Source: an uncultured Methanosarcinales archaeon (GTDB taxonomy: Archaea > Nanobdellota > Nanobdellia > Woesearchaeales > ARS49). Taken from it: a stretch of 64,000 nucleotides of DNA. The notes under the pieces are model-generated. The model ran no database searches and was not told where the DNA came from. It was given only the letters and a program-made list of their open reading frames with translations. Where the stretch lies: assembly GCA_964358315.1 (NCBI GenBank), contig CAYHOF010000004.1:2431-66430 (forward strand), given 5' to 3'. Position numbers and translations under genes: made by a program. This document shows positions 1 through 54,555 of the stretch, in pieces (the first letter of the stretch is position 1; every line of letters begins with the position of its first letter).

Positions 1-781
1 GCCGCGGTGGCTCGTGCTCTCGCTCGTGCTCGACGTGCTGTTCTTCGTGGTGTATGGCTTTGTCACGAGCCCGATCAAGGACAAGATACTCGAACACGTG
101 GTCGTGATCGGCAGCCTCATGTCGCAGGCAGCGCAGGAGAGCGGCTCGCGCGCGGTGCAAAGCGGCCAGAGCATCGTGGCGATGCTGCTCACGCGGCAGG
201 AGATCGCGCCCTACGTGCGGCAGGTGCTCGTGCTGTTCGTGATGCTTGCGATCGCGGGCTTCGTCACGTTCGTGCTCTTCCAGGCAGCGCTGTGGTGGGT
301 CGCGCACCGTCGTGTCGGTCCGACCCTGCCACTCCCTGACTTCATCGCGCGTTTCGCGTCGCTCACGCTCTGGTGGGGCGTGCTTGCGGCGGCGTATCAC
401 TTGCTGTCGCTGCTCGTCGACATACGGCTCGCAGTGGTCAAGACGCTCTCGTCGACGCCCCCCACGGACGCGCTTGGTGTCGTCATCATGGTCCTTGCCG
501 TCATCGCGGCGGTCTTCGCGCTCTGGACGTACGGTCGACCGCTCAACGAGTCAGGCTGGCGTGGCGCCGTTGAGGGGGTGCGATGGACGGCGCGCCACTG
601 GAGGACGACGCTTCCTGCGACCGTGTTTGTCGCGCTCGTGTTCGTCGCGATCAATTATGCCATTATCGGCCTTTCATCCCAGTCATCGAGCGCGGCGCTC
701 ATCGTCGGCGGCGTCCTCGCGGTCCCTGCGTTGAGCTGGGCGCGCGTCTATCTCGTGCTGAGAGGGAATCATGTGGATTGA
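1..781 (+). CDS. Integral membrane protein, 5'-partial. The frame is open to the window start and the ORF track begins at a GTG at 14. Multiple hydrophobic helices. Its stop overlaps the lgt start.
   Basis: No stop in frame upstream of the GTG at 14. Several predicted TM helices. 11-nt overlap with the downstream lgt. Confidence 0.5.
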   Translation, partial: PRWLVLSLVLDVLFFVVYGFVTSPIKDKILEHVVVIGSLMSQAAQESGSRAVQSGQSIVAMLLTRQEIAPYVRQVLVLFVMLAIAGFVTFVLFQAALWWVAHRRVGPTLPLPDFIARFASLTLWWGVLAAAYHLLSLLVDIRLAVVKTLSSTPPTDALGVVIMVLAVIAAVFALWTYGRPLNESGWRGAVEGVRWTARHWRTTLPATVFVALVFVAINYAIIGLSSQSSSAALIVGGVLAVPALSWARVYLVLRGNHVD

Positions 782-1556
782 CAACCTGAACCCCATCGCA
801 TTGCAGTTGGGCCCGCTGTCCATCCATTGGTATGGCGTCATGTACGTGTTGGGTTTCCTCTTCACGTGGTACTATCTGCGGCAGCGTGTCAGAGAAGGCA
901 AGCTGTCCTTGACCGAGCAGGATGTTGAGAACGCGCTCGTGTGGTTAGTGCTTGGTGTCGTCGTTGGTGGTCGGCTGGGGGAAGTCCTCTTTTATCGTCC
1001 CATGTATTATTTGGCGAACCCGTTCAAGATCATCGCGATTTGGGAAGGGGGCTTGAGCTTCCACGGTGGCCTGATCGCGTGCCTGATCGCCGGTTACTTC
1101 TTCGCCAAAAAGAAGAAGATGCCGTTCTTGGCATTCGCCGACGCGTTCGTCGTGCCGCTCGCCATCGTGCAGGCGTTCGGCAGGATCGGCAATTTCATCA
1201 ACGGCGAACTCTACGGCCGCATCACGAGCGTTCCCTGGGCGATGATATTCCCGCTCGCGGGCGACATGCTGCCGCGCCATCCCTCGCAATTGTACGAAGT
1301 GGGGTACAATCTGCTCATCGGCGCCGTCATCTTCTCACAGCGGGACAAGAAACGCCCGCACGGGTGGCTGCTCGGGTTCTGGTTCGTGCTCTACGCGATC
1401 GCGCGCTTCACCAACGAATTCTTCAGGGAACCGGAAGTGCTTCTCGGGCCGCTGACGATGGGGCAGATGTTGAGCGCGCCGATGCTTTTCATCGGGTTGT
1501 GGTTGATGTTCAGGAAAGACGCCACGCGCTACGCATCGACTATTTCGTCGTCGTGA
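771..1556 (+). CDS. lgt: Prolipoprotein diacylglyceryl transferase (Lgt)
   Basis: 261 aa with the Lgt signature segments 'HWYGVMYVLGF', 'GGLSFHGGLIA' and 'GRIGNFINGELYGR'. Polytopic membrane protein. Confidence 0.8.
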   Translation: MWIDNLNPIALQLGPLSIHWYGVMYVLGFLFTWYYLRQRVREGKLSLTEQDVENALVWLVLGVVVGGRLGEVLFYRPMYYLANPFKIIAIWEGGLSFHGGLIACLIAGYFFAKKKKMPFLAFADAFVVPLAIVQAFGRIGNFINGELYGRITSVPWAMIFPLAGDMLPRHPSQLYEVGYNLLIGAVIFSQRDKKRPHGWLLGFWFVLYAIARFTNEFFREPEVLLGPLTMGQMLSAPMLFIGLWLMFRKDATRYASTISSS

Positions 1557-2037: not shown

Positions 2038-2268
2038 CTAGATATGCCCCGTGAATTCTTCTCGTGTAATTCCCAGATCTTTCTTGATGATTTTGTTTAG
2101 CAGGCCCGGACCGATTTCTTGTCCGGCGTGGTGTGGTATCGTGGTCCGTCGACCGTCAGGGTGTTTGTAGACCATGTGGCTACCTGTCGTGTGACTATAG
2201 ACGAATCCGAATGCTTCGATGACGCGTGCAACCTCCTTGCCGGTCAGGAGGGGGAGCTTTGGGGGCAC
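2038..2268 (-). CDS. hicA: HicA-family toxin (mRNA interferase)
   Basis: 76 aa with 'GSHMVYKHPDGRRTTIPHH...IGPGLLNKIIKKDLGI', which matches HicA/YcfA-like proteins. Directly follows hicB. Confidence 0.75.
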   Translation of the reverse strand: MPPKLPLLTGKEVARVIEAFGFVYSHTTGSHMVYKHPDGRRTTIPHHAGQEIGPGLLNKIIKKDLGITREEFTGHI

Positions 2269-2478
2269 TTAGACCTCTATCTGTTGTACTCCTACGAACT
2301 GTTCAGAAACTTCAGGTTCTTCGCCTGATTCGATGTATGCTTTGATTGCTTCTTTTGTGCGGGCGATGAGATCGTCCATGGATTTCGCTTGCGTGTGGCA
2401 ACCCGGGAGTTCGACGACTTCAGAAACGAGCCATCCGTCTTCGTCCTTCTCGATGATGAGCGTGTATTTCTTCGACAT
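2269..2478 (-). CDS. hicB: HicB-family antitoxin (UPF0150)
   Basis: 69 aa 'MSKKYTLIIEKDEDGWLVSEVVELPGCHTQAKSMDDLIARTKEAIKAYIE', the HicB N-terminal fold. Abuts hicA. A TATA-like 'cttatataga' lies ~25 nt upstream on the minus strand. Confidence 0.7.
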   Translation of the reverse strand: MSKKYTLIIEKDEDGWLVSEVVELPGCHTQAKSMDDLIARTKEAIKAYIESGEEPEVSEQFVGVQQIEV

Positions 2479-3111: not shown

Positions 3112-4011
3112 ATGCTGGCATCTCCAATGGCCCAACTCCCGGACAAGGGACTCGAGATCGTCAGGCAACGGCTTGAGCAACCTGTCAAGACCATCCAGAC
3201 AGCCGCGTCTATGGTGCCAGCGGTGAGCAAGTTGTACCAACCTATCATCGACGCGGGCAAACGCGTCGGCATGCGCGCCGTCGGTGCGTTCACAGAAGGA
3301 CACAAGGGCATGGCATTGGTGGTCGGAGAATACCATGATTCGGCCACGTCTGCGCAGCAATTCATGACGGTCGTCAACGACCTGATGAGTGGCGTCCAGG
3401 GTGCCACGTACGTGCTCGAGGGCCCGCCCGGCATCTACTGCATCGCCCCATCCATCGCGCTTGATGGCGCGCTCGCCTCGTTCGCACAGGATCCGGCGAC
3501 GCTCCCGGTGCTTGAGTCGATCGTGCAGAAGCACCGATTGAGCCCTCTGTGCATCCCTGTGTTGGTCAAGGAGTACGCCGCAGGTAAGAGGTCTGTCATC
3601 ATCGAAGATGGAGGGTATGATGTCGTCATGTGGAATGCTGCACGGCCTGAAGTGCTGTTGCGCGACCACTGGTCGAGCCACAAGGACAGGGTCCGCTTCG
3701 CAGACGATCCAGCAGCGGCCGAAACACAACGCAAGATCACGCAGGACCTTGCCACGGACACCGTCCGCAAGGAAGACGTGGTGTACACTGCCGCCCTTGC
3801 CGTGTATCTGACGTCGTTCATCAAGCGAGACCAGATCATCGCCCACGCCATCGCCAGCGAGGCAGCTTCTGCTCCTGTCATCTGCAAGGTCGGCATCGGG
3901 CACGTCATTGCCGGCGTCCTTTGCGAGCAATTGCCGCGCTATGGCGTCTCCTACATCGCGCTCGCGCCTGACGTGCGGGACGAATCCTTGATCATACCGT
4001 CGCTGCGATGA
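3112..4011 (+). CDS. Hypothetical protein. The ORF-track frame starts at a GTG at 3073. The likely start is the ATG at 3112 or 3127.
   Basis: Protein-like composition, unlike the R-rich antisense ORF 3094..4089. A TATA box lies upstream. Confidence 0.5.
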   Translation: MLASPMAQLPDKGLEIVRQRLEQPVKTIQTAASMVPAVSKLYQPIIDAGKRVGMRAVGAFTEGHKGMALVVGEYHDSATSAQQFMTVVNDLMSGVQGATYVLEGPPGIYCIAPSIALDGALASFAQDPATLPVLESIVQKHRLSPLCIPVLVKEYAAGKRSVIIEDGGYDVVMWNAARPEVLLRDHWSSHKDRVRFADDPAAAETQRKITQDLATDTVRKEDVVYTAALAVYLTSFIKRDQIIAHAIASEAASAPVICKVGIGHVIAGVLCEQLPRYGVSYIALAPDVRDESLIIPSLR

Positions 4012-4519
4012 GTTGCAGGCGTCGCTCAAGTTCTCCTTCGCAACCGGACGCGTCGCTCGTGATGCCGATGACGAGTTCGTGCGGCGCATTTCCTTGGGTG
4101 TAGCTGCACATCATCGACTGCCCCACGAGGTATTCCTCCATCTCAGGGGCGGCGGCGTCCAGTCTTGTGAGTGTCTTTGTGATGGTGCAGTCGCGCGACT
4201 CAAGAGTTGCTTTCCCTCGGTCGTCGATGATCGTCAACGAGGCAGGCTTGCATGCTTGTGCTGCAGCCATGAAGCAGTTCTTGTCGAGCTTGCAATCTGT
4301 CGGGAACGGCACGAAGAGCAGGATTGACGCGACCGCGGCAGACAGCAGCAGGAGAACGACCAGGATCACATACAGGCTCCGTCTATACGTCTGCGGTTGT
4401 CGCGGCAGTTGTCCGGTCGCGGGCATCCCTGATGGCATGTCAGGCAATGCTTGCGCCCGTCGACTTAGAAGTGCATTCTTGGGTGGGAGAAACGCGCTTG
4501 CCATGGGTGTATTCATCAC
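3992..4519 (-). CDS. Small membrane-anchored Cys-patterned protein (paralog A): disordered N-terminus, one TM helix, ~100-aa C-terminal domain with conserved Cys
   Basis: 175 aa. TM helix 'LYVILVVLLLLSAAVASILLFV'. C-terminal 'AQACKP...MMCSYTQG...GCEGEL' aligns with paralog B. Confidence 0.55.
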   Translation of the reverse strand: MMNTPMASAFLPPKNALLSRRAQALPDMPSGMPATGQLPRQPQTYRRSLYVILVVLLLLSAAVASILLFVPFPTDCKLDKNCFMAAAQACKPASLTIIDDRGKATLESRDCTITKTLTRLDAAAPEMEEYLVGQSMMCSYTQGNAPHELVIGITSDASGCEGELERRLQLIAATV

Positions 4520-4587: not shown

Positions 4588-5058
4588 CTAGCGTGCTTCG
4601 TTGACCAGTTGCGCTGACTGCAGTCCGAGAATTGCGTCCCGTAACGTCCCGGTGCATCCTTCTGTCGTCAAGCCCTTGATGAGTGCCGGATCGAATTGGC
4701 CCTGCGTGTATGTGCAGAGCATGGTTTTTCCTTTGAAATAGTCCACAACGATTTGTGGTTCGGCAGGACCGAACGTGTCGATGCTCGTTGTCACCGTGCA
4801 CCCCTTCTCTTCGTACTTGATGATGGTGCCGTTGGCGATCTCTGAACGCAGCATGGCCGTCTCGCATTGTTGGGCCCGAGCGACAAAGCAGTCAGCGTCG
4901 CGTCCACAGTCGCGCCCACTCACGACCAGGATGATGATCGCGACAGCGGCCAGGAGCACGAATGCGACACCGATGATCACGAACGCAGGCCGTGATGGTC
5001 GTCCTGATTGCCCGGGTGAGAATTGCCCGCGGCGGGAGTTGCTGCGTGGTTCTTGCAT
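4588..5058 (-). CDS. Small membrane-anchored Cys-patterned protein (paralog B)
   Basis: 156 aa. TM helix 'FVIIGVAFVLLAAVAIIILVV'. C-terminal 'AQQCET...MLCTYTQG...GCTGTL' keeps the Cys and YTQG spacing seen in paralog A. Confidence 0.55.
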   Translation of the reverse strand: MQEPRSNSRRGQFSPGQSGRPSRPAFVIIGVAFVLLAAVAIIILVVSGRDCGRDADCFVARAQQCETAMLRSEIANGTIIKYEEKGCTVTTSIDTFGPAEPQIVVDYFKGKTMLCTYTQGQFDPALIKGLTTEGCTGTLRDAILGLQSAQLVNEAR

Positions 5059-5207: not shown

Positions 5208-6020
5208 ATGCGAATTCCTGTGTTCGGCGATATTCACGGTAACATCGAGGGGATGTTCTTTGCATTGCAACAATTGCAGCGGGAGCATGAAGAAAAGTAT
5301 CCCTTTGTTCTGCAGGTCGGCGATCTAGGCTACTTTCCGACACGTGACTCCGAAGACTACGCCACGCGCAGGCATGGTAAGCATAGTGAGACTGAGCAGG
5401 GTGTGCGTCAGTATCTGGCGGCATCATCGTTGTACGAACGTTTTTTCCACAGGCCAGGCGATGATGCGCTGTGCGCCAAAATATTCTTCATACGCGGAAA
5501 CCACGAGGATCGCGGCGCTCTCAAGAAACTTGAGGTTGCGCGTCCGGAGGGCGCGATCGCGGCGGATCCGTATGGTGTGCTGCACTACCTTCCGGACGGT
5601 CGTGGTATCAGCATCCCTCTGACTCCGCATGATGACCTGACGATAGTGGGTTATGGAGGGATCGCGAAAGACCATCGTCCCAAGGCGTGCTCGAAGAATC
5701 CGGACATCGCGTTTTCTGAACTAGGATTGGACCGTCTCGTCAACTATCAGCCTGGCGCCATCGATGTGTTATTGACGCATCAAGGACCTGACATGGTCGA
5801 CAAAGGCGACGTGATGATCACTATGCTTTGTGAATCGCTCAAGCCGAAACTGCACCTTCATGGTCATACTCACCATTATTCTAGGCCTGTGATGATCGGC
5901 GAAACGTCAAGCTACTGCATTGGTCTTATGCCAGCGACCCCGCGGCCTGGCACGTCGGGATTTTATGGTTTCCTTGATGGCAGAAAAAACTTCACTCTTC
6001 TTGCAAGTCCTGTACGCTGA
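5208..6020 (+). CDS. Calcineurin-like metallophosphoesterase, PPP-family Ser/Thr phosphatase-like
   Basis: 'GDIHGN', 'QVGDLGYFPTRD' and 'RGNHEDR' (GDxHG / GDxxDR / GNHE signature) plus a later 'GHTH'. N-terminal region is paralogous to the N-terminal domain of giant protein 1. Confidence 0.7.
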   Translation: MRIPVFGDIHGNIEGMFFALQQLQREHEEKYPFVLQVGDLGYFPTRDSEDYATRRHGKHSETEQGVRQYLAASSLYERFFHRPGDDALCAKIFFIRGNHEDRGALKKLEVARPEGAIAADPYGVLHYLPDGRGISIPLTPHDDLTIVGYGGIAKDHRPKACSKNPDIAFSELGLDRLVNYQPGAIDVLLTHQGPDMVDKGDVMITMLCESLKPKLHLHGHTHHYSRPVMIGETSSYCIGLMPATPRPGTSGFYGFLDGRKNFTLLASPVR

Positions 6021-9000
6021 GCCCTGAGGGAAGTTCGAGCGGCCCGTTCAGGTTCAGTGTTTGGAGCCCCTTGATGCGTATGATGTTATGGTAGCCACGC
6101 AAGTACGGGTTGATCGACTCGTGGGCCAAGGTTATCATACGGCTCAGCATCGTTGCATCAACGACCGTGCCACGCGACAGTTGGCTTGCCAGGATGCTAC
6201 TATCGATGTCTAAGAAGCGGACCTTTCCATCCTTGCCAAGCGTCATCTGGATGCCTTCCGCTCGTCGGAGCACGTCATCAGGAAGACTGGCCTCTGTTTG
6301 TGAGCGTTCGTAGGAAATCGTACGTGCGAGAAGCCTTCGTTTATCGGCTTCGTACAGTGCTCCGAGAGCACCCTCGTCATTCCCACGCGCCTCGAGCGCC
6401 GTTGCGTAGCGCTCCATGCCATCTCCTTCTCGTCGTATGAGTGTCGCCAGCCCATCTCTGTGGTGCACGTTATTGCCAATGGTGCCATCTCCGGTTTTCC
6501 AGAAGAGTATGTGCAGCTCTCCGGCTTCGTCCTCATAGACCATCCCTTTCGCGCCGAACACGCCAGGAGCGTGCTCATTGGAAAACAGTTCGTGTATGTT
6601 GTCCCGTGTTATGGTGTCGGTTGCCAATGCCGATCTTCGTGTATCTTCCCGTTCAACGCTGGTGGGTAAGGGAGTTGTGGGGGTAGGTCGTGGTGGTGTA
6701 GGTATCAGTGTCACATCGCTGAATGCGGGTTTTGTCGGTGCGCTCGTGACGTGTCGAAGCGCGGTATTGCCCTCAACGTTGTTGATGAGAATTTGGAGCA
6801 GTGCGCTTTGATCAACGACCTGCGGTTGGACTATGACCGAATCCCCTGCGACAAGACCGAATCTTTCCCTCAGCGCAATGACGAGCGACCTGTCTGTGAT
6901 GGCCTCGGAAAGTCCCAACGCGTTCACGACAAAGTCACGGTGTGCGAGGTCTGCTGCATCGAACGCCGCGACTTTTCCCGTGTTTAATTGGCGTTGGGCG
7001 AGCGTCAGCGCAGACCCGAACTTGACGATGATTTCCTCGGCAATCGCACGATCAGACTGGCTCGCATACTCGGGGTGTTCTGCGAGGAACGAGGCCTTTG
7101 CCGCAGCGAATGCCACCTCGCCGGCGACGAGCGCATCCACGAGCGCACGTTGTGTTCCCTTCGTGCGAAGAACACTGTGCAGGCTCTCCTCGATGATGGT
7201 GGCTGCGCGTTGTTTTGGAGCCAAGTCCTCGGCGATAAACGTTTCTCCGCTCACGTCAGTGGCACCCGCGACACCCTCCTCAAGAAGACGACCGGCTGCC
7301 GTTGCCTCGCCTCGGCCGGACGCTTGGTCCGTGGTGGGCGCTGGCGTCGGTGCGACCGGTGCGCTTTGAGGCGTCACGGGCGCTGGAGCCACAGGTCCGG
7401 GCGGTGCAGGCGCGACCGCACGTGGTCCTGGTGCTTCTGGCGGGACGGTCAGCGTGGCGAGAACTTGATTCTTGACGCCGAACAATTGTGCAAGCCGGGT
7501 ACTGCCAAGGAGCGTTGCTTCTCGCTCGAGCGTGAGCGTGTCACGATCACGTTTGATGATGATATCCGTGTCGTCGAAACGGCGTGTCGTGGGTTCTAGA
7601 CCGAGTATGAGTGGCAGCTTTTCTGTCACGCGCTCGCCGCGGGCGTTGGTGCCGCGATCGACGACAACAAGGATCGTGTCAAGGTGGGTGCGTTCGATGC
7701 CTGCCACGCGCCGTCCGAGTCCGGCGTCGGCCAACGCGGTGTTGGTCGTGGCAAGGAAATCACGTCCTTGTTCGTAGAAGTTTCGAAGGACGATGTCCTT
7801 GACGTTTGGTGCCTTGTCGTGCGCGAGCGCATGGCGTGTCAGTAGCATCCCTGCCAGTTGTGTCTTGGCGTTCTCGGGCTGTTGTGCGATCTCTGCGTAC
7901 ACTTGTTCGAACTCGCGGAGCCTGTCCTGTTCGAACATGAGGATTCGCGAACTGATATCGGTAAGACTGGTGTCGGGGTTTGTTGCCAGGATCTCATTCG
8001 CCAGGCGCTGGTATGCCAGCACTTCAGCGACTTGTTGCGGCGTCATGGTACTGAGTTCGCGGACTGCTTCGCTTTCCTGCATTGCATCCAAGAGCGCATT
8101 TGCTGTTGCACGGTCTGTTTGCCAGCTCGCTTCGGCCGCGGAGAGCGTCGCGCGTCCTTGTTCCTCCAACTCCTTGCGCGCCTGTTCGATTTGTTGCTGT
8201 CGCTCGGCGTCGCTCATGGGTTGTGTGGTGCGAGGCTGCGGTACGATGGGCGCTGGAAGCGTTGCTTTCTCGATGAGGCGGTAGGATTGGACGCCTAATG
8301 ATCCTGTGGGTCCATGTCTGACTAGGTACGCCTGTTGGGTGCCGTCAGGTGATTGCAGGACGATGCGTGCTGGCGCGTTGCCGATGCCGCGGAGCGTCTT
8401 GACGTAGACACCTGTCACAGCAGTTCCCACGTTGATTGTGATCGTGTCTCCTTGCGCGATGCCTGCGGCCGCGATATCGTCGCGCACCAGTTCGGCGATG
8501 AGCACGTTGGTGGACGCCTGTCCGAAGCTCTCTCCTGTCGCGGGTGCGACTGCGTTGTCTGTCGGGATGTTGCGACGCTCTGCCTCAGCATGGACGCCTG
8601 CGGGGTCGTTGATATGATAGACAGGAGCGGACACGCCCGGTCGTGATGGTGGCGTGATGGGTGCGGGTTCGGCTATGGCGATCGGTCGGGCCTGCTGAAC
8701 GTCCCGCACGAGTTCTGCGGGCGGCGTGTTGGTGGGATCGTTCGCTTGGCGTTCGACGACGGCAGCGGCTTGGGAGATCGCGTCCACATCCGTCACTGGT
8801 GCCCGGGAGACAGCTTGTGGCGGTGCGGGTTGTGCGGTGCGTGGCCGTGTCAGCGTGATGCTCAACCCCGTCATGTCGTCGACCATCTCATCAACGAGCT
8901 GGCCGTTGCGTGCTATGCCGAGTTCTTCGTGTGCCTCTTGCACCAGTTGTTGCTGGAGGCTGACGATGTCGCGGGCGGAGAGCACTGCCTGCTTCAGCGT

Positions 9001-12000
9001 TTCCTGCAACGTTTCATCGAACGTTTTCACAATCGGCTGGTTGTTGTCAGTCCGCTTCCTGTTCACGATGTCGGTCGCGTCCGTGACGCCATCGCCGCGT
9101 ATCAATAATGCGTCGCCGTTGCTGAGAAACGCGCGGGTCACGACAGGTCCGGAAGGGATGAACGCGGTCCCGAAGCCCACGTCCATGGTTGCGCCTTTTG
9201 AATGGCCGAGGACGCGGCCTGGCGGGCCGAGTTGTGGGTTGTACGTGGCGCCCCGCACGTGTCCAACCTGATACCCATGGCTGTGGAGTGTGGCAACGCC
9301 TTGTTGGACGTTGATATCGATGGTCGCGCCTGAGATGAACTTGCCGATGTAGAGCCCTAACTGGTCCTGGTCCCGCATGGCGTCGAACTTTCGTCGCAGG
9401 AATTCGTCCCGGCTCGTCCTCTGTTCTGTCTGTGAGCTGGACGTGAATCCTGAGTCGATGATGGCCTGTTCGAGCACTTGCGCGGCCAGCCGCATGGTTT
9501 TTTCCCGCAGTTCGGCGTCGGCCGGTACCTTGATTGTCAGCCGTTCGAGCCCGTCTTTGATGCGTTGCAGTTGTTCGGCGGTGAGTCCATTCGGTCCGAT
9601 CGAGAGCACGTCGCTGCCAAGCGCCGTGAGGATTGCGGATTCTGTGGTGTGTCTCTCGATAGTGTCCGCCTGCACCGCTTGTGCTTTCCTGACCTGTTCG
9701 ATCGCATCAGCCCGGTCTTTCACGTTTTCTCCGGCCTTGTCCTTGATTGCGGTATACTCCTCGTTTGTGAGCGCGTCCGGATTGATCGAGAGGAGGCCTT
9801 CTCCGAGCGCTTCGTAGATTTTTTTCTGGGTCGCGGTCATGCCGCTGTCAGGACTGTAGGGCAGCACGGTCGGGATCCTCGCGCGCACGGCATCCTGGTA
9901 TTGCGGGAAGGTCTGGAGGATGCCCGACGCGGCCTTATAACGATCGAGCGCTGACGTGATGATTGGGAAGAGCGCGCCGCGGAGTTGCAGGTATCCGACC
10001 TCGCTCGTGACTGACGCGTCGTACGTCCCGGCAAGGACACCCGAGCCCGTGATGGCGATCTCGAGGACCCTGGCCGTGTTGTCATCGATGGCTTCGGTCA
10101 AGTCGATGGTGGGGTTGACGCCGTGCAGTCCCAGGTTCTCGCCGATGTACTTGCGCACTGTTCTTTTTTGTTCAAGCGTGAGGCTCTGGAACGTGCGTCG
10201 CGTGGCTTCGTTCTCTATCTGTTTGTAGAGAGCACCGATGATGCCTGCGTCGAGGCCATGGCCTGAGATGTCGCCGTATTGTATCGAGATGATGTCGTTG
10301 CCCTCCGCATCCTTCATGGCGACGACACGGACATGGTCGCCACCACCCATGCTGCTGAGCTGCTGCAGCCATTGCGCGAGCTCGACCGTGGTCCCGTCCT
10401 GGTACGCAAAGGTGAGTCCTGTCGTCGCGCCGTTGTCATCGACGGTCTTCTGGACCGTGACGCCCGGCGTCCGCTCGAGCGTGCGCACGTCGACGGACGG
10501 CTGCGCGGTGGCGCGCACGCCTTCAAGCGTGACTTGTCGCTTCCACGCGGCTATGCGCGCGGCGTTCTGTGCGGGTGTTTCAGTCGGCAGCTTCTTCTTG
10601 ACTGCAAACGGCACGAGTTTGTCTGCTTCGGCATTCACGAATTCTTCTTGGAGTCCACGGATAAGGTCGAGTTGTAGCTGCAGTCCGACGCTTTCATCAG
10701 CGGTTGCGGTGGCGAGTCGTGCGATGACCGTTCGTTCTGCGACAAGCGCGGCTTCCTGCATCAGCCAGCGTTCATGGCTGCTGATCTGGGATGCGCTACG
10801 GTCCGAATCCTTCGGTACTGTACGCAGGTTAAGCGCTGCACGGTAGCGCGTCACTGCCTCCTCTCGTGTCAACGAGACGGCATTACCGTCGATGACGATG
10901 TCGAGCAAGGCAAGGGGTGAAGGTCCGGTCTGTTGCACCGCGCGTTCGAGCCCCACGACCGTTCCATCCTTGTCGCGCGCGATCTTCTGGGTGTAATCCG
11001 GCAATGTCCCGTCCTTGCTTGTGATTTTTATCACGTCACCCAGGAGCACGTAGTCGAAGTTGGCGTCTTCATACCGTGCCACGTCGAGCATGTGGCGTTG
11101 CGTGAGCGGTTGTCCGTTGATGGTGGGCGTGCCCTCGCGCAACACGATGGGTGCTGGCTGGATCTCTGTTTGCGGCTGGCTCGGGCCGATGCCGGCGATC
11201 CTTCCTTTGGTGTCGGTGTAGATGGGGATGTCGAGGCCGGGTTGCGTCCCGTCGATACGCATGACACGGATGCCTGTAGGGGTGATCGTGTACGTGAAGA
11301 ATTCGTCCTGCACTTGCGGGTTTGTCACATCGATGGCCTGGCCGTTGATGGTGAGCTGGCCTTGTATCACCACCACAGGGGAGGGGGACTCCTCGCCCTT
11401 GATGATGATGCGGGGTTCGGTCACGCCGAGCAGCCTTCCGTTGTAGTCGCGCATGATCAGGACTTCTTGACGTGGTTGCGCCGCATCCTTGGGTATGATG
11501 TCGATGATGGCGCCCCTGCGTTGGTAGATGAAGTGCGTGTCCTCGACCCGTTGTCCTTCATCGACTTCCAACACGCCGATCTGGATTGCATCGCCCGCCA
11601 CCACGATCGCAGCCGGCGTCGGGACGATGGCTGGCTGCGGCGGCTGTTCGAGGAAGCTCTGGTCGAGTTCGTGCACTCTGCCGATCGTGAGCGGCGTGTT
11701 CTGGCCTTGCTGCCTCACTGTGGTCACGCCTGCATCGGTGACGACGTCGAGGATGGCAACCACCTGCCCGTCTGCCATGTCGCGGCTCACGCGCAGCTTC
11801 CCTTGCGTGGGGTCGTAGTCTATCGTGAAATCGCCCGCATAGACTGTCCGCGGTCTGCCGTCGAACGTGATTTCGGTCGTCGTCCCGCCTGCGAACACGC
11901 TGACGCCGTCCGCGCGCGGCACGATCATGGGCGTAGTGAGCGAGATGAGGTCACGCACGTGCTTGAGGTCGTCGTTGAGAAGGAGGAGTTGGAGCTGTCC

Positions 12001-14826
12001 ATCAACGCGATCATTATGGAGTATGGCTAGTGCGGCAAGGGTATTTTCTTGGGATCGGCTGGCGTCAGGAGACAGCACGATGGTGTCGATCTTTCCTGTG
12101 TGTTGGTCGATGTCGATGATGCTGGCGCCATCGACGTGTTCACTCGTCACGGTGACGATGCGACCGTCCTCATCGAGCACGACGTAATACTGGCTAAGCA
12201 CGCCACCCCAGACAGTCGTCACGTCTTGGGTCACTGCAGGCAGGTCTTTGCCTGTGCGTTGATTCACATCGTCTATGCCTTGTGCGAGCGCGTCGATGTT
12301 GTCGAACACGACGCGTTCCACCTCGCGTGAAGAGCCTGCAGGGAGCAGCTGGAAGTCGGAAGGCGTGAGGATCGAGCGCAGTGCCGCGTCGGCCACGATG
12401 TCTCCCTGGGCAACGGCGACAGGCGCTGCTTGTGGCGACACGCCTGTGATGATGTCGCGCACCAACAAGAGTTTGGCGAGTTCGTGCCTCGCTTTCGGGA
12501 TGTTTCTGGCGATCGTTTGGTATGCTTCCTGCAGTTGTGGGCGTCGCGTGGATCCTTCACGGGCCATCCGCATGAGTTCAGCATCGACGGCTTTGAGGTC
12601 GAGGCCAGGTCGCTGCGCGAGGACCTCGTTGCGTGCGTGCTCGAGCGCGAGCGTGCGGGCCATCTCGCGCGGCGTCATCCTGACGAGCTTTTTTACAGCG
12701 CCACGTTTTTCCGCTTCTTTGAGGAGCGCGTTTGCTTGAGGGTCTGCGTCCAGTTGTGCCCGCGCGTCAGCAAGCTGGCGCGCGACGTCAGGGGATAGTT
12801 GTTGCGCGAGTGTCCCTAGTTGCTGTTCGAGCGTCGATCGCGCTCGTGGCTTGGGTGGTTGTTTCGGATGTGGGATCGGCGCTGGCGGGATGACTGCCGC
12901 GACCGCTTGCGTGATGTCAGCGCCACGCGTTCTCTTGGCCCACCAGATGCGGAATGTCTCGATAGGGCCTGGCGTCCTGCCGAGCACAGACCTCGCTTGG
13001 AGCATGGTGACGCCCATGTCGAGGACGGCGATGACAGGAGAGATGATGAGGTACCCGAACGTCGCGGCCGACCTCAGCACCGTGGGTTTTGGTGAGGTGG
13101 TGGGCACGATCCTGGCGCGAACGTGATCCTTGATGGTGTCATCCACTGCTCTCTCGACGTCGAATTCGTCGGGGCGCTGGCCGGACGCGCCTGGCCCGCA
13201 CCTCATGCGGGACCTGAACCTGCATGCGTCATCTGCCTCGGTCCGGCGCTGCACGTCCGACGCGAACGGATCGGTGGCGGCACCGAGCGCGAGCAGCCGT
13301 TCGTAGAGCGCTTGGCTCATCGCGACCGTGCCGTCATCTTCTGTCTCGATCCCTTCTTCGACGTCTTGCGCGGCAACGCCGTGTTCTTCGCGTACCTGCG
13401 CGACTTGTGCGTCTGTCGACTGCGGTGTGACGGCTTGTTCGGCGCGTCCTTCTGTGGGTGTCGTGAAAAGCGCTTCGTTGCTCACAGGACCTAGTGCGGG
13501 CTCGCTGGGCCCGATCGCGGTGATGTGGGAGGGATCGGATGGGTCGAGGCCTTCTGCGGGGATGGCGACGACGACCATGGCATTGGGATTGTTGACCTGC
13601 ACGACCGTGCCACCGACGTCCAGCCTGTGCGTCCCATCAGTGACCGGTCTGTGGCCGATGATCATCTGCTGCACGTTCTGACCGGTCTCCCGACGTATGT
13701 CTGCAAGCAGGGTGGCGACCGCATTCGCTATCCTCTGTTGTTTCTGTTCGCGCGTGTACGGATCTTTCTCGGTCTCAAGCGTGTTGTCCGTGTGCGTGAG
13801 CGATTTGACCGCGTCATAGTCCTTGTTTTCGACATTGTAGTATGATTGCTGTATGTCCGGCGTCGTGTGCGATGCCACGAATGTCGACCCCACGACCATG
13901 AGCGGGAAACTTCGCGCCAGCGAGCCTAGCGATTCGAGCATCGCGGGTCCGAGTTTCTTCTCGATGTGATCGCGCAAGAGGCGGGATTCGCCTCCTGCTT
14001 CCGGGCTCACGAATTTGGCGGCGCCGCCGTAATATTCGGTCGCGTCGTCATGGTTGCCTTGGATGACGTGGAAGCTATCAGGGAAGGCTGCTTTGAGGTC
14101 CATGACCATCTGGAGCGCGGTCAATGATTCGACCATTTCCGCGTTGAGGCTTGCTTCGTCGCCCTGTTCCGCGTTTTCCCATCGCTCTTTGCCACGCTCT
14201 TCGGCGTGGAGGATGTCACCTAGCATGATGATGTTGGCTCCTGGCGGCGTTTGTCTGAGAAGTTCGATGTACGGCCTTTCAGAGATCGGCTCGATCTGCT
14301 GCAGCGCCTGCAGGAGCATGCCGCGACGGCCGTGCAGGTCGGGGATGATGAGGGCGGGCAGCGCTGGATTCTTGAGCGTGAGGATGCCGTTGGTGTCGAT
14401 GGCGCCGGCGAAATCGGCCGCGAGACCGGCTTCCACTGCCAGCGCTGCGCGGGCCTTGTCGATGGACGCCTGCAATGCTGTGGGGTCTATGCTTCGTGCG
14501 GCGGCCAGTGCGGCATAGTGATCGATGGATGTGGGGTCTGTGGGGATGGCGCTCGTCGCAGGAATGGTCTGACTGTCGAGAAACTGGAGTGCGATGATTG
14601 CATTGCGTCGTTCAGTGCTGTCCGCAGTGCTGTCCGCGATGATACGTTGCATCACGTCGCGCAGTTCTGCGCGCGCTTGTTCGTCCGTGATGCCTGCCGC
14701 CTTGTACTCGTTCAAGTATTGTTGGACTTGGTCGTGGACGCCTAATGGCAGCAGGCATGATTGTGCGTAGGTGGCAGGGAGCTGCAGGATGAGCAGTGCG
14801 ATGATGAGGAGGGCGCGTGTTCTCAT
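5992..14826 (-). CDS. Giant secreted multidomain protein (2944 aa). Signal peptide, N-terminal PPP-like metallophosphoesterase domain, 'RCGPGASG' module, Pro-rich linkers, long unknown regions.
   Basis: Single uninterrupted ORF. N-terminus 'MRTRALLIIALLILQLPATYAQS' reads as a signal peptide. 'IIPDLHGRRG...IIMLGDILH...VIQGNHDD' gives the phosphoesterase motifs. Codon usage is consistently coding, with an A-ending Ala/Gln/Thr codon bias. Confidence 0.8.
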   Translation of the reverse strand: MRTRALLIIALLILQLPATYAQSCLLPLGVHDQVQQYLNEYKAAGITDEQARAELRDVMQRIIADSTADSTERRNAIIALQFLDSQTIPATSAIPTDPTSIDHYAALAAARSIDPTALQASIDKARAALAVEAGLAADFAGAIDTNGILTLKNPALPALIIPDLHGRRGMLLQALQQIEPISERPYIELLRQTPPGANIIMLGDILHAEERGKERWENAEQGDEASLNAEMVESLTALQMVMDLKAAFPDSFHVIQGNHDDATEYYGGAAKFVSPEAGGESRLLRDHIEKKLGPAMLESLGSLARSFPLMVVGSTFVASHTTPDIQQSYYNVENKDYDAVKSLTHTDNTLETEKDPYTREQKQQRIANAVATLLADIRRETGQNVQQMIIGHRPVTDGTHRLDVGGTVVQVNNPNAMVVVAIPAEGLDPSDPSHITAIGPSEPALGPVSNEALFTTPTEGRAEQAVTPQSTDAQVAQVREEHGVAAQDVEEGIETEDDGTVAMSQALYERLLALGAATDPFASDVQRRTEADDACRFRSRMRCGPGASGQRPDEFDVERAVDDTIKDHVRARIVPTTSPKPTVLRSAATFGYLIISPVIAVLDMGVTMLQARSVLGRTPGPIETFRIWWAKRTRGADITQAVAAVIPPAPIPHPKQPPKPRARSTLEQQLGTLAQQLSPDVARQLADARAQLDADPQANALLKEAEKRGAVKKLVRMTPREMARTLALEHARNEVLAQRPGLDLKAVDAELMRMAREGSTRRPQLQEAYQTIARNIPKARHELAKLLLVRDIITGVSPQAAPVAVAQGDIVADAALRSILTPSDFQLLPAGSSREVERVVFDNIDALAQGIDDVNQRTGKDLPAVTQDVTTVWGGVLSQYYVVLDEDGRIVTVTSEHVDGASIIDIDQHTGKIDTIVLSPDASRSQENTLAALAILHNDRVDGQLQLLLLNDDLKHVRDLISLTTPMIVPRADGVSVFAGGTTTEITFDGRPRTVYAGDFTIDYDPTQGKLRVSRDMADGQVVAILDVVTDAGVTTVRQQGQNTPLTIGRVHELDQSFLEQPPQPAIVPTPAAIVVAGDAIQIGVLEVDEGQRVEDTHFIYQRRGAIIDIIPKDAAQPRQEVLIMRDYNGRLLGVTEPRIIIKGEESPSPVVVIQGQLTINGQAIDVTNPQVQDEFFTYTITPTGIRVMRIDGTQPGLDIPIYTDTKGRIAGIGPSQPQTEIQPAPIVLREGTPTINGQPLTQRHMLDVARYEDANFDYVLLGDVIKITSKDGTLPDYTQKIARDKDGTVVGLERAVQQTGPSPLALLDIVIDGNAVSLTREEAVTRYRAALNLRTVPKDSDRSASQISSHERWLMQEAALVAERTVIARLATATADESVGLQLQLDLIRGLQEEFVNAEADKLVPFAVKKKLPTETPAQNAARIAAWKRQVTLEGVRATAQPSVDVRTLERTPGVTVQKTVDDNGATTGLTFAYQDGTTVELAQWLQQLSSMGGGDHVRVVAMKDAEGNDIISIQYGDISGHGLDAGIIGALYKQIENEATRRTFQSLTLEQKRTVRKYIGENLGLHGVNPTIDLTEAIDDNTARVLEIAITGSGVLAGTYDASVTSEVGYLQLRGALFPIITSALDRYKAASGILQTFPQYQDAVRARIPTVLPYSPDSGMTATQKKIYEALGEGLLSINPDALTNEEYTAIKDKAGENVKDRADAIEQVRKAQAVQADTIERHTTESAILTALGSDVLSIGPNGLTAEQLQRIKDGLERLTIKVPADAELREKTMRLAAQVLEQAIIDSGFTSSSQTEQRTSRDEFLRRKFDAMRDQDQLGLYIGKFISGATIDINVQQGVATLHSHGYQVGHVRGATYNPQLGPPGRVLGHSKGATMDVGFGTAFIPSGPVVTRAFLSNGDALLIRGDGVTDATDIVNRKRTDNNQPIVKTFDETLQETLKQAVLSARDIVSLQQQLVQEAHEELGIARNGQLVDEMVDDMTGLSITLTRPRTAQPAPPQAVSRAPVTDVDAISQAAAVVERQANDPTNTPPAELVRDVQQARPIAIAEPAPITPPSRPGVSAPVYHINDPAGVHAEAERRNIPTDNAVAPATGESFGQASTNVLIAELVRDDIAAAGIAQGDTITINVGTAVTGVYVKTLRGIGNAPARIVLQSPDGTQQAYLVRHGPTGSLGVQSYRLIEKATLPAPIVPQPRTTQPMSDAERQQQIEQARKELEEQGRATLSAAEASWQTDRATANALLDAMQESEAVRELSTMTPQQVAEVLAYQRLANEILATNPDTSLTDISSRILMFEQDRLREFEQVYAEIAQQPENAKTQLAGMLLTRHALAHDKAPNVKDIVLRNFYEQGRDFLATTNTALADAGLGRRVAGIERTHLDTILVVVDRGTNARGERVTEKLPLILGLEPTTRRFDDTDIIIKRDRDTLTLEREATLLGSTRLAQLFGVKNQVLATLTVPPEAPGPRAVAPAPPGPVAPAPVTPQSAPVAPTPAPTTDQASGRGEATAAGRLLEEGVAGATDVSGETFIAEDLAPKQRAATIIEESLHSVLRTKGTQRALVDALVAGEVAFAAAKASFLAEHPEYASQSDRAIAEEIIVKFGSALTLAQRQLNTGKVAAFDAADLAHRDFVVNALGLSEAITDRSLVIALRERFGLVAGDSVIVQPQVVDQSALLQILINNVEGNTALRHVTSAPTKPAFSDVTLIPTPPRPTPTTPLPTSVEREDTRRSALATDTITRDNIHELFSNEHAPGVFGAKGMVYEDEAGELHILFWKTGDGTIGNNVHHRDGLATLIRREGDGMERYATALEARGNDEGALGALYEADKRRLLARTISYERSQTEASLPDDVLRRAEGIQMTLGKDGKVRFLDIDSSILASQLSRGTVVDATMLSRMITLAHESINPYLRGYHNIIRIKGLQTLNLNGPLELPSGLSVQDLQEE

Positions 14827-15702: not shown

Positions 15703-16092
15703 ATGGCCTTGCCGTCTAGCGCGCCGACAATCGTGGGCATTGACCATCTGGTACGGCAGCTTTTTGGTCAGGAGCACCAGATCAAGTGCGTCGCGAACGA
15801 ACGCGGTATGGTGTTCCATGGCGTCAATAGCCAGCACGCGTGGAACGGTGTTTTTGGCGTCTGTTATGTCGAGGGCTCGAAAGGCAACGCGCTTGCCGGC
15901 GTCATTTACAACAACCAGATTGAATTCAGGCGTCACGATGCCTTCACCGAGCAGCGCGTCAGGACCATGATGTCGTTTGTGGCAGTTGAAGTGAAAAAAT
16001 CCCTTGATCATTCTCTCGTGCCAGTCTTTGATGGTTACGAGCTCGTCTACGGTGCCACCCGGTTGGGACGCGTGGACGATTCAGCACTGTAG
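15703..16092 (+). CDS. Hypothetical protein (129 aa)
   Basis: Starts 6 nt after the stop of the previous ORF. GC3 ~70 %. Competes with the opposite-strand ORF 15490..16011. Confidence 0.35.
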   Translation: MALPSSAPTIVGIDHLVRQLFGQEHQIKCVANERGMVFHGVNSQHAWNGVFGVCYVEGSKGNALAGVIYNNQIEFRRHDAFTEQRVRTMMSFVAVEVKKSLDHSLVPVFDGYELVYGATRLGRVDDSAL

Positions 16093-19000
16093 TGATGCTG
16101 TCGCGCGTCCTGTGAACATGTTCTGCCGGTCGGCTGGCGTCATTGCCGCGAGCGGCGCGGATGTGGCATGCGCTGAATTGAAAGTGTGGATGACCTCATT
16201 GCCTGCGATGACCGTGAAGCCATGCAACCCTTCGAGACCTGGTTCATTCTCGAGTTCTTTCAACTTTTCAAGGACTGCGTTGATGCGTACCGCGCGGTCC
16301 CTAGGACCGATGAATAGTTCGATAGTGCCCTTTGAGACCTTGATGTATCCTTCAACCCTGTTTTTCTTCTCGCCAGGGATTATAGTGTTGTGCAGGGTTT
16401 GTGAATTCGCGCTGACGTAGGCGATCTTGCCGCCCGCGATCACGACCTTCACGTCCACACCCTGCTCCAGCAGTCCTTTGAGTCCGAGATACTCCTCCTT
16501 CACTTGGCTTGGACTATACGTTCCTGGCGGTGCTTGTTGGGCTGTCGGTGCTACCAGCGCAGCCACCTGGTCATAGCTCGTTGCTGCAGCTATGCCTGGG
16601 AAGCGTTGGGTGAGCTCGAGCGCGCCAAGGAAGAACTTGCCTGTGTTACCGTCGATCGTGATGACGTCTTTCGTGCTGATGGTCTGCGCAAGCAATGCGA
16701 TATCCGCGCTCTTGGCGCCGACAATGGCAGGGATGCCGAACTTGCGCGCCACGACCGCGGCGTGGCTCAAGCGACCGCCTTCCATCGCGACAACGCCCGC
16801 GAGCCTTGACATCATCGGCACGACGACACCATCTATCGTCACGACCTGGCCCACATCCTCCGGCGTGAGAGCGTCGGTGACGAGGATGACTTTTTGTCCT
16901 TGTTGTATGAGCGTCTTGGCCCGTTCGATTCCTGCCTGCTTCTGCGCGCCGATCGCGCGCACAATGACGCCTGTCGCCGCGCCGCTCGACGCGGGCTCTG
17001 CTGCGAGAAGCGTCGATGCTTTCTGCCCTTCGCGGACCTGCGTCTGTCGGAGTTGGCTGAGCAGCGGCTTCATGCGTTCGAACGCAGCCTCGTATGCGGC
17101 AGGGGGTGTGCCGAACACGCCTTTCTCGACCAGGTTGATGATGGACCGTAACGCTGCAGCAGGCTCCATTTCCGCTGTTCGTGTCTGCAGGATGTAGAGT
17201 CGTCCATTGTCGACGGTGAACTCGATGTCTTGCGCCGTGCCGAAATGCCGTTCGAGTGTTTCCGCGTACGCCAGCAGTTGGCGGTGGAGCGCGGGCGAGG
17301 TGCGTTGGAGGTCGGCGACTGAACGCACCGCACCCTTGCCTGACACAACTTCCTCGCCTTGCGCGTTGGGGAGATACTCGCCTGTTGGTGTTGCCTCGCC
17401 CGTGATGGGGTTCTGCGTGAAGAGGATGCCTGTGAGCGATGTGCCGAGCCTGTTGTTGCCGAACACCATTTTTTGGACTGTCACCGCTGTGCCGAGCGTG
17501 TGCGGGATGCGGTTGGCGTCCCTGTACGCGACCGCGCCCGGCGTGTTCCATGACTTGAACACCGCTTCTGTCGCCGCATCGAGTTGCGCCCTGCCGTTGT
17601 GCAGGAAGCGTTCATGGCCGTCCCGTGTGAGAAGTAGTTTCATCCTCTCAATCACCTGTGTCGGTGTCGCGCCCGCCGCAAACCGGTCGATGCGCGCTTT
17701 TTCATAGCCGAGCACGGTCACGGCGAAGGACTGCAGGAATGTGGCGTACGTGCGTGTGGCTTCCACTTGTCCGATCATGCGGGCGAGCGCGGGGAGCGTC
17801 TCGTCTGTCAGGCCTACGTTGAGCACGGTCTCGAGCACGCCCGGCATCGAGACAGGCGCGCCGCTGCGCACCGAGACGAAGAGCGGTGTTGCAGGGTCTG
17901 CTGTAGGATCGTTGGGATCGTAGAGCGTACCTTCTTGTGTGACGTCGAACGTCTGTTTGAGTTGGTCGTTCATCGCCGTGGTGGGCAATTCTCCTGTGCG
18001 TTGGTAATGCTCGAACGCCTCTGTGGTGAGCACGAAGCCCGGTGGGACGGGCATGCCGAGCGCGATCATCTCGCCAAGGTTCGCGGCTTTGCCGCCAAGC
18101 GATGCCCTGAACGCCGCGCCGTGCTCTCCCAGTCCTTCGACCATGGTGCCTGACGGGACGAGTTCGACGGTGCGGAATTCTGTCGCGCCTCCTGTGCGGT
18201 CGCCGAACTTGGAGACGATCGGCGTTTCTCCGGCATAGACAGCAAGCGCCCGGTAGAGGTTCCTGTTGCCTGCCGCGAAGGTGCGGAACTCGTTCTCGTC
18301 GGCGAATTGCGTCTGGACGAACCGTTTGCCGTCCTTGACGCCCTCCACGATGGTGAAGATGTTCTGTGATGATTTGTAGTCGACAACAGGCGCTTCGCTG
18401 CCGGTGCGTGCGATCCATTCGTTCACGGCGTTCGCGAGCGAGCCGTGCGAGATGTCTCCTCCTAAGCTGAAGGTGCCGGCCTGTTCTCCGTTTTTGAGGA
18501 CGGTGACACGACTGCCGTCTTGTTTGTAATGCCACACATTGCCCTGTGAGTCGAGGGTCATGATGGACAATGCCTGTTCTGAGAGCGCCAACAATCCTGC
18601 CTGGTTCATCGCTTCCTGGATGATGGGAGTGGCGAACGCCACGTATGTGGCGAGCAATGGTTGCGCATCCTGCGCGGACATCGCCTCGTCGCCGCGGAAC
18701 ATTGTCGGTTGGATGTCTGCACCGGTGAGGACGCCGCGTGCGTGGACGATGACGCCTTCTTCGACCATGCCTTCATGGAATGTTCCTGCCTCGGCCACTC
18801 TGATGACGAGCTTGCCGTCCTTCTCATACATGACGTAGTTGAGCGTCAACTGTCCTCCTTCTTGCGATAACTTCTTGAACATGTCCGCGAGCTGTTGTGC
18901 TGCCTCTGCCGGCGTCTGGTCTGCTGTGATCTCGACCGCCTGGACCAATGCGATGGGAGGCACTTCAACTTGGTCCACGACGCCTGCTGCGTTCTTCTTC

Positions 19001-34357: not shown

Positions 34358-35140
34358 TTATGCGGCAATCCGCTTGGTCTGAATGGCAGTGTACGCGTTG
34401 AGCGTCTCGTACAAGAACTGCATCGCAGGACGCTGCTGCGGGTTCTCGAGCATGCAGATGCGCAGCATGGTCTGCAGGTCAGGCGTCAGGTCGCGGCAGA
34501 GCAGGTGTTTGGCGACGGCCGCCATCGAGTAGACGTCCTCCGCGGGCGACGCGACGAGGTTGCGCTTTTTGAGTCTGGCGCGTTCGTGTTCGGGTGGCTC
34601 GTACCTGTCGGTGCTCGTGTGCGGCACGTCTTTTGCACCGACCTGCACGCTGGGGCCGAAGTCGATGAGGCGCGCCTCGAGTGCGTCGGTGACGAGGATG
34701 TTGCCTGGCTTGATGTCGCGCACGACGATGCCGTGATCGTTGATCTTCATGATGCCTTCGCAGGCGTGCGTGAGTAGCGCGGCGATGTCGTTCGGAGTAT
34801 ACGTGCGGCTCTCGTAGCAGTCTTTGAGGTCGCGCGGGAGTTGCGGCGTGACGATGCAGGGCAGGTTCGTTCCGTCAGGATAGGAAAGACGCGTGTCGAG
34901 CGGCGTCAGGATATGGTCGGGGAAGCGTTGCCCAAGGTCGTGCCAGACGCGTGATTCCTTGATGATCTCGTTCTGTGCTCTCGGATCGTACGCGGTCTTG
35001 ATGTGGACGTGCTGGGTCGATCCATGCTGAAGAAGGTCGGCGACGTAGTGCTGGACATGGTCGTTGCTACCAAGATGGCGTACGTTGGCAAGCGTCCCTT
35101 CTACGCTGTGCAGCACCGGTGTATGGCAGTACATATTCAC
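34358..35140 (-). CDS. Eukaryotic-like Ser/Thr protein kinase domain protein
   Basis: 'IVVRDIKPGNILV' (catalytic loop) and 'LIDFG' (DFG), plus an upstream VHIK lysine. Confidence 0.65.
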   Translation of the reverse strand: MNMYCHTPVLHSVEGTLANVRHLGSNDHVQHYVADLLQHGSTQHVHIKTAYDPRAQNEIIKESRVWHDLGQRFPDHILTPLDTRLSYPDGTNLPCIVTPQLPRDLKDCYESRTYTPNDIAALLTHACEGIMKINDHGIVVRDIKPGNILVTDALEARLIDFGPSVQVGAKDVPHTSTDRYEPPEHERARLKKRNLVASPAEDVYSMAAVAKHLLCRDLTPDLQTMLRICMLENPQQRPAMQFLYETLNAYTAIQTKRIAA

Positions 35141-35187
35141 TCACTAGTGGTAACAAAACGTTCAGGGACTATATAAATATTACGTCC

Positions 35188-44390: not shown

Positions 44391-44408
44391 CAACGAGGCT
44401 CAACAACC

Positions 44409-45853: not shown

Positions 45854-45865
45854 GAGAACCAACAT

Positions 45866-47289: not shown

Positions 47290-47294
47290 ACACA

Positions 47295-48068: not shown

Positions 48069-48076
48069 GGGAAACA

Positions 48077-54554: not shown

Positions 54555-54555
54555 C

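Follow-up and report, generated by a model that had tools for sequence, protein, structure and literature searches.

Do archaea possess a prolipoprotein diacylglyceryl transferase (Lgt)? The question is raised by the stretch of 64,000 nucleotides analysed here (the window), which was assembled from an uncultured archaeon of the Woesearchaeales (GenBank assembly GCA_964358315.1, contig CAYHOF010000004.1, positions 2,431 to 66,430 of the forward strand) and contains an lgt homolog at 771-1556 on the + strand, with an ATG start and 261 codons. A preliminary description of this DNA was based on the general view that most archaea lack Lgt, which agrees with the recent literature: archaea were stated to have no Lgt homolog by Hong et al. 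(Nat Commun 2025, PMC12462473), and a second specialist paper likewise reported Lgt as absent from archaea (PMC13251419). A full-text literature search combining Lgt or diacylglyceryl with Woesearchaeota or DPANN (Diapherotrites, Parvarchaeota, Aenigmarchaeota, Nanoarchaeota and Nanohaloarchaeota) returned no report of Lgt in these organisms. In the interpretation that we consider probable, 771-1556 encodes an Lgt that is native to a DPANN archaeon of the Woesearchaeota type and is probably competent in catalysis; it was most likely obtained by an old transfer from bacteria and inherited since then together with an upstream partner gene, here called X.

By all sequence and structure criteria tested, the window protein belongs to the Lgt family. 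The Pfam profile PF01790 matched residues 8-247 over profile positions 1-239 of 240 (E = 5.6e-77, 258.7 bits against a cutoff of 24.9), the NCBIfam lgt equivalog TIGR00544 gave 212.9 bits (cutoff 118.9), and the E. coli Lgt structure 5azb was aligned by HMMER with E = 5.4e-48. An AlphaFold2 (AF2) model made with an input of 42 homologs (predicted local distance difference test, pLDDT, 92.2; predicted template modelling score, pTM, 0.86) was compared with the PDB using Foldseek, and 5azb was the sole significant match (TM-score 0.85/0.78, E = 5.5e-19), the runner-up having E = 0.25. What had been described as a clear Lgt homolog is therefore a full-length family member by both profiles and by fold.

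The product contains GRIGNFINGELYGR, and the nine key residues that were checked are all identical between the window and E. coli proteins (window Y21, H98, R138, N141, E146, G149, Y208, R212 and E216, corresponding to E. coli Y26, H103, R143, N146, E151, G154, Y235, R239 and E243); the E. coli reference sequence was controlled only by the HMMER alignment to 5azb, where the PDB chain numbering is one residue off. Loss of the His103 and Tyr235 equivalents had been named beforehand as an observation that would speak against a real Lgt, and both residues are present, as H98 and Y208. The same nine residues were kept in all ten homologs with archaeal names and in nearly all of the 150 aligned sequences. 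The window Lgt is likely to be catalytically competent. GenBank already labels the window protein and at least nine Woesearchaeota homologs as Lgt; since this automatic annotation already names the family, the result is an unnoticed fact of distribution and not a new enzyme.

The window is fixed as archaeal by an exosome/proteasome superoperon at 44004-48307 (+), which comprises Pop5, PsmA, SBDS, Rrp4, Rrp41, Rrp42 and RpoK. The Pfam matches were taken from the identical short contig L007 (Pop5 as RNase_P_Rpp14 and RpoK as RNA_pol_Rpb6), and the archaeal genes named in the preliminary description (exosome, proteasome, Pop5 and RpoK) proved real. Contig L007, which comes from a single sample, and the window show a difference of 33 nt in rrp4 (window 45866-46564; 221 versus 232 amino acids called), owing either to strain variation or to assembly at low coverage. 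A NOG1-type GTPase is encoded at 36663-37664.

When the window was divided into 8-kb segments, the tetranucleotide profile of the segment with lgt correlated with those of the exosome-operon segments at 0.94-0.95, the one outlier being a stretch of lower GC content within a giant gene, at 24-32 kb, and the GC content at third codon positions was 0.81 for lgt compared with a gene mean of 0.74±0.09. The neighbourhood of lgt was assembled independently, on short contigs, in six samples from the Hainich aquifer (well H43), and the exact window Lgt protein is present in GenBank under the name 'Nanoarchaeota archaeon' from Hainich groundwater. Archaeal hallmark genes were located within 10 kb of an orthologous lgt in five of nine independent loci, all in unrelated assemblies: histone and diphthamide synthase in L010 (JGI 3300029258; Lgt 56% identical to that of the window), thermosome in L011 (JGI 3300038466; 63%), aEF1α, aEF2 and S10 in L092 (GCA_038884635.1; 51%), TFB, CDC48 and RNase J in L093 (GCA_900218215.1; 53%), and PCNA and TFB in L103 (GCA_023266895.1). 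The gene order lgt, Flavin_Reduct, methyltransferase was common to the window, L011 and L104. The preliminary description had asked for a check on a chimeric contig, and none was indicated, given the uniform composition and the lgt orthologs beside archaeal hallmark genes; the latter, coming from unrelated assemblies, are the decisive evidence by which chimerism is excluded. The gene is almost certainly a native archaeal one.

Database searches with the window Lgt gave top matches of 50-63% identity that were called 'Candidatus Woesearchaeota archaeon' wherever they were named, and the first named bacteria (Pusillimonas and Thermodesulfobacteriota) followed at 49-50%. Among the matches listed in a scan of GTDB genomes there were bacteria only, at 41-49% identity (Zeta-, Alpha-, Beta- and Gammaproteobacteria, Desulfobacterota, Cloacimonadota and Nitrospirae). 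A neighbour-joining (NJ) tree was calculated for 150 sequences, consisting of those members of the best 120 matches that had at least 225 amino acids, 29 bacterial sequences from named GTDB genomes and E. coli Lgt. In this tree 65 sequences formed one clade (bootstrap 47/60), which held all ten sequences with Woesearchaeota or Nanoarchaeota names and was free of the 32 bacterial sequences of known origin (the 29 from GTDB, Pusillimonas P0089, Thermodesulfobacteriota P0119 and E. coli). The subclade of the window (P0001-P0004 and P0032) was recovered with a bootstrap of 56/60.

The mean distance inside the archaeal clade was 0.68, the same as within the broad bacterial remainder (0.68), and the mean distance between the two groups was 1.01. 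The clade is also marked by substitutions at sites that are nearly fixed in the bacterial set, namely M100L (100% in the clade versus 1% outside), E206N (Glu at 206 in 99% of sequences outside and 0% inside), P136A, L205Y, L210I, L40Y and G75F. The preliminary description left it open whether the gene had been acquired or retained, and acquisition is favoured by a single clade whose named members are Woesearchaeota or Nanoarchaeota and which shares only about 45-50% identity with Lgts of proteobacterial, desulfobacterial, Cloacimonadota and Nitrospirae origin. Judged from these sequence relationships, the most likely origin of the clade would be one old bacterial transfer followed by vertical descent, with partner X, in Woesearchaeota-type archaea.

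Gene X, which the preliminary description did not mention, lies directly upstream of lgt. Its 3' 255 codons are in the window (1-781, +), and the full gene of 273 codons is found at L001:1619-2440, L001 being the counterpart of the window; the two genes overlap by 11 nt at the stop of X and the start of lgt. What is new here is that lgt is always paired with an upstream X in the archaeal loci: X directly precedes lgt in all nine independent archaeal loci with enough sequence (window/L001, L010, L011, L092, L093, L097, L099, L103 and L104), usually with an overlapping or abutting junction. Within approximately 6 kb of lgt it was present in none of 80 bacterial loci and also not in L094, the locus of P0069, which is the non-clade sequence on average closest to the clade. 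The pairwise distances of X and Lgt were correlated (Pearson 0.86, Spearman 0.63; eight loci giving 28 non-independent pairs), and X diverged about 1.6-fold faster than Lgt. X is probably tied functionally to Lgt, and any specific role that might be given to it is doubtful.

Comparisons of X with Pfam (51 members, E<=1) and NCBIfam gave noise only and no family match, and the idea that X is a diverged Lgt paralog was rejected (hhalign probability 0.5%). An exhaustive search with a hidden Markov model (HMM) found 599 cluster representatives at E<=1e-3, with 387 of them at E<=1e-10, counted by profile match alone without gene context; the family is uniform in length, at about 250-290 amino acids. 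Word-indexed searches for X found only 5-7 matches and a metagenome scan found 8 loci. The AF2 model of X is all-helical with six long membrane helices (pLDDT 84, pTM 0.79), and compared with the PDB it had no significant fold neighbour (best E 0.43). Near-invariant residues are D28, F31, G36, W115, F135, N139, W142, S188, Y189 and G248 (numbering of P0122), and R260 in the same numbering is invariant among ten closer homologs. According to the positive-inside rule both termini would be cytoplasmic and most of the conserved polar residues would be in the cytoplasmic half of the bilayer, a topology which argues against an extracytoplasmic protease like Lsp and is more compatible with a role in lipid handling or scaffolding. 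An Lsp-like aspartyl protease was also judged unlikely given that only one Asp is nearly invariant.

In six of eleven archaeal X-lgt loci, X is directly preceded, or overlapped at its start, by a short open reading frame (ORF) of 44-54 amino acids, here called S (L001:1485-1622, immediately left of position 1 of the window; L010:9077-9211; L092:9027-9191; also L011, L099 and L104). It encodes a single transmembrane (TM) helix with an [L/F/I]FPTP motif after it, and the operon may have S as a third gene.

Genes for extracytoplasmic thiol-redox proteins recur near X-lgt. Three thioredoxin-like repeats, each with CxxC, are carried by a membrane-anchored protein that is encoded upstream of X-lgt at L001:18-1151 (left of the window), L011:7472-8629 and L104:433-1638, and in another subclade a CcdA/DsbD-type membrane protein (DsbD_TM), adjoining SecD/SecF, is found upstream at L093:7900-8880 and L103:8928-9890. 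A glutaredoxin-like gene is near X-lgt in L092.

Candidate substrates of the Lgt were sought among the 55 window genes obtained by codon-usage-scored gene calling. Exactly six of them encode a signal peptide with a lipobox, and they are the same six proteins, with the same starts, that the preliminary description had pointed to. With a Gram-positive style lipobox expression, 6/48 called genes of at least 100 amino acids were matched compared with 1/155 length-matched non-gene ORFs (Fisher p = 7.8e-4). A crude hydropathy screen found an N-terminal hydrophobic segment in 11 non-polytopic proteins, six of which are the lipobox proteins, and in all six the Cys is followed by a tether rich in Pro, Ala, Gln or Glu.

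Three of the six gave no Pfam match: a protein of 121 amino acids (48443-48808, +; MKKFVLLLAVLTLAVMVAC, then an Ala/Pro-rich linker), one of 335 amino acids (48920-49927, +; MKLITILCVVIISLMVAC, with …IISLMVAC followed by APATPAK) and one of 257 amino acids with a Cys-rich C-terminus (50695-51468, +; MFMEASFKWVMVVLAVLSLSMLAAC, with …LSLSMLAAC followed by GKAPEQP). The other three are tandem substrate-binding proteins of the Peripla_BP_6 family (PF13458), located on the + strand at 58651-59709 (E = 2.8e-32; MKQTIIVALMALLLLAAC, with …LLLLAAC followed by AQEQ), 59712-60836 (E = 4e-46; MKKTAHYPTMSIGALAVLALLVVAGC, with …LLVVAGC followed by ATEQ) and 60894-62027 (E = 1e-50; MKRTLALCALLLIVAAC, with …LLIVAAC followed by APAEQ). 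The transporter that they serve is formed by two LivH/LivM-type ATP-binding cassette (ABC) permeases at 62091-63826 (+; BPD_transp_2, PF02653, E = 6.7e-42 and 9e-46), and an ATPase gene whose N-terminus has a Walker-A-like motif starts at 63823. Binding proteins of ABC transporters are typical lipoproteins of monoderm bacteria. Lipoproteins are prevalent in DPANN according to a published survey (PMC12462473), and we think it likely that the Lgt acts on the lipobox proteins of the window.

Small homologous lipobox proteins of about 115 amino acids are encoded directly 3' of lgt in two other loci, at L092:10779-11123 (…VFAGC) and L010:11663-12010 (…LVIAC). These genes are likely to place a substrate beside the enzyme.

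If the archaeal enzyme acts as bacterial Lgt does, lipobox preproteins exported by Sec would be its substrates, and the +1 Cys would be joined by a thioether to the glyceryl-lipid moiety of a phosphatidylglycerol (PG)-type donor at the outer face of the membrane. The six lipobox proteins, three of them binding proteins of a Liv-type ABC importer, would be the candidates in the window, and the lipid tether would hold binding and other surface proteins on the cell, which would be useful where there is no outer compartment. The same lipid-anchoring strategy is used by bacterial monoderms and haloarchaea. Candidate donors are bacterial diacyl-PG or archaetidylglycerol, with the opposite glycerol chirality, presumably obtained by scavenging, and the diacylglyceryl type of lipidation suggested in the preliminary description is tentative. 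A more speculative proposal, which we regard as possible though rather unlikely, is that S, X and Lgt together are an archaeal adaptation in which X and S are required accessory subunits for Lgt in the Woesearchaeal membrane; they might deliver or flip a scavenged PG-type donor, or retune Lgt to archaetidylglycerol.

Several points weigh against a native Lgt of old bacterial origin that lipidates the window's proteins. A Pfam scan of 41 of the 55 called window genes gave no Lsp (PF01252) or Lnt match, and a phmmer search with E. coli LspA (run without a positive control) gave no match among ORFs of at least 50 amino acids in the window and in 104 loci, which included approximately ±10 kb around the archaeal lgt genes, so that the bacterial pathway looks incomplete in the sequence covered. 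Woesearchaeota reportedly have no geranylgeranylglyceryl phosphate (GGGP) or digeranylgeranylglyceryl phosphate (DGGGP) synthase and rely on lipids from outside (PMC8421398, PMC6586073), so that the presence of a PG-type donor with suitable glycerol stereochemistry is uncertain. The NJ tree is distance-based, unrooted (midpoint only) and was limited to the sequences that resemble the query most; the single transfer, the donor lineage and strict monophyly are therefore provisional. Finally, AliA is present in other DPANN and could serve the lipoboxes instead (PMC12462473).

This last point leads to an alternative explanation, namely that the Lgt homolog is native while an AliA-type enzyme lipidates the lipobox proteins, Lgt and X having another role such as a narrow substrate set or the use of host-acquired lipids. 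We consider this explanation unlikely. It would fit with the occurrence of AliA in DPANN 'with some gaps' and with the way AliA tracks lipoprotein content across archaea (PMC12462473), and it would also account for the clade changes at sites near-invariant in bacteria (E206N, M100L and P136A) and for an obligatory partner X that has no bacterial counterpart. It is opposed by the retention, in all ten named archaeal sequences, of every residue known as essential or important for Lgt catalysis, and by the lipobox genes directly beside lgt in two lineages. No AliA came to light in the sequence covered, though no search aimed at it was made. The window protein itself was considered as a member of the AliA type (arCOG02177/02178) and rejected, since its strong full-length match to PF01790 makes it Lgt proper.

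Two further explanations are both very improbable. An archaeal contig might have been fused with a bacterial lgt end, or bacterial contamination of metagenome-assembled genomes might explain the database Lgts called 'Woesearchaeota', and the low coverage of the source samples (2-4 in the contig names), the position of lgt only 0.8 kb from the window edge and the fact that the closest bacterial Lgts (45-50%) are nearly as similar as many archaeal ones (50-63%) could be taken in this sense. Such an assembly or binning artefact is largely refuted by the uniform composition and the six independently assembled lgt neighbourhoods, by the five unrelated assemblies in which orthologous lgt is within 10 kb of archaeal informational genes, by partner X in 9/9 archaeal loci and never beside a bacterial lgt, and by the clade-specific substitutions in Lgt. 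Alternatively lgt might be a decaying and non-functional relic of a recent transfer, with lipobox-like N-termini that are ordinary signal peptides or membrane anchors and have a Cys at their end by chance; two of the lipoboxes do have a less canonical Met at -3 (MVAC). This reading is disfavoured by the full-length ORF with its nine key residues kept in the ten named archaeal and nearly all 150 sequences, by the deep divergence of the 65-sequence clade with its conserved operon structure and synteny, and by the lipobox enrichment (p = 7.8e-4) with Pro/Ala/Gln/Glu-rich tethers after all six Cys. A native, inherited Lgt is the explanation that we prefer.

Several other genes of the window were recorded. 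The giant ORF of 4888 amino acids at 16081-30747 (-) has a signal-peptide-like N-terminus and, in an unusual combination, a module of PPDK_N and PEP-utilizers (phosphohistidine swivel) domains at residues 4216-4703; the 24-32 kb part has a lower GC content (0.49-0.54) and a deviant tetranucleotide profile. A second giant ORF of 2944 amino acids at 5992-14826 (-) has an N-terminal signal peptide and no Pfam match, and is abutted by a metallophosphoesterase gene at 5208-6020. Adjacent small paralogs at 3992-4519 (-) and 4588-5058 (-) encode an N-terminal TM anchor and a Cys-rich ectodomain with no family match. A HicA/HicB toxin-antitoxin pair (HicB by Pfam match) is located at 2038-2478 (-), just 3' of lgt and Flavin_Reduct, and a two-gene cassette at 54303-54777 (-) was judged, by reading the sequence, to be a putative toxin-antitoxin pair of the RelE/ParE type. 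Two adjacent genes at 34358-36057 (-) encode eukaryotic-type protein kinase domains (Pkinase, E = 1.6e-13 and 1.2e-4) and are adjoined by a TIGR00375-family gene at 33005-34333. A homolog of the L-alanine exporter AlaE is encoded at 55038-55535 (+; PF06610, E = 2.8e-20); the AlaE family is mainly bacterial, so that the archaeon may have here a further membrane gene of bacterial type.

The window and at least 64 related sequence clusters represent a full-length Lgt clade native to Woesearchaeota-type DPANN, which corrects the current statement of the field. Lipoprotein biogenesis may have a new component in gene X, a concrete candidate with 599 family representatives, no annotation and no relative by structure. 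The system offers a direct experimental handle on whether Lgt acts on archaeal ether lipids of opposite chirality or on bacterial PG in lipid-scavenging archaea. If the proposal of X and S as accessory subunits is true, Woesearchaeal membranes would hold a PG-type lipid usable by Lgt, possibly diacyl-PG from bacterial partners, which would bear on the hosts and lipid sources of a very abundant DPANN group.

Compared with E. coli Lgt, the window protein has about 35% structure-based identity, the same body of seven TM helices with an N-terminal β-hairpin arm and the GRxGNFxNGELxG signature, and in both cases lipobox substrates are encoded nearby. It differs in a short head domain, in which approximately 21 residues corresponding to E. 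coli 171-191 are gone, a feature common to the window Lgt and its closest bacterial relatives, and in that its gene sits in a Woesearchaeota-type archaeal genome. In relation to 81 bacterial lgt loci, a tightly coupled upstream X with six predicted TM helices was found only at archaeal lgt. The bacterial Lgt-Lsp-(Lnt) pathway is matched in its first committed enzyme and its lipobox substrates, and differs in that no signal peptidase II or N-acyltransferase was found in the window or in the archaeal lgt flanks.

The archaeal lipoprotein lipidation factors AliA and AliB (arCOG02177/arCOG02178) were described in Haloferax volcanii (PMC12462473, PMC13631571), and the similarity of AliA to PF01790 is marginal (HHpred 29%; PMC12462473), unlike the 258.7 bits of the window protein. 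AliA transfers an archaeol-type lipid. The two systems are alike in their presumed job, which is lipidation of the lipobox Cys in archaeal proteins exported by Sec or Tat, and both are found in lineages rich in predicted lipoproteins, DPANN included. Archaea would then have arrived at lipoprotein lipidation in at least two ways, by AliA/AliB and by true Lgt, which are either unrelated or related only very distantly.

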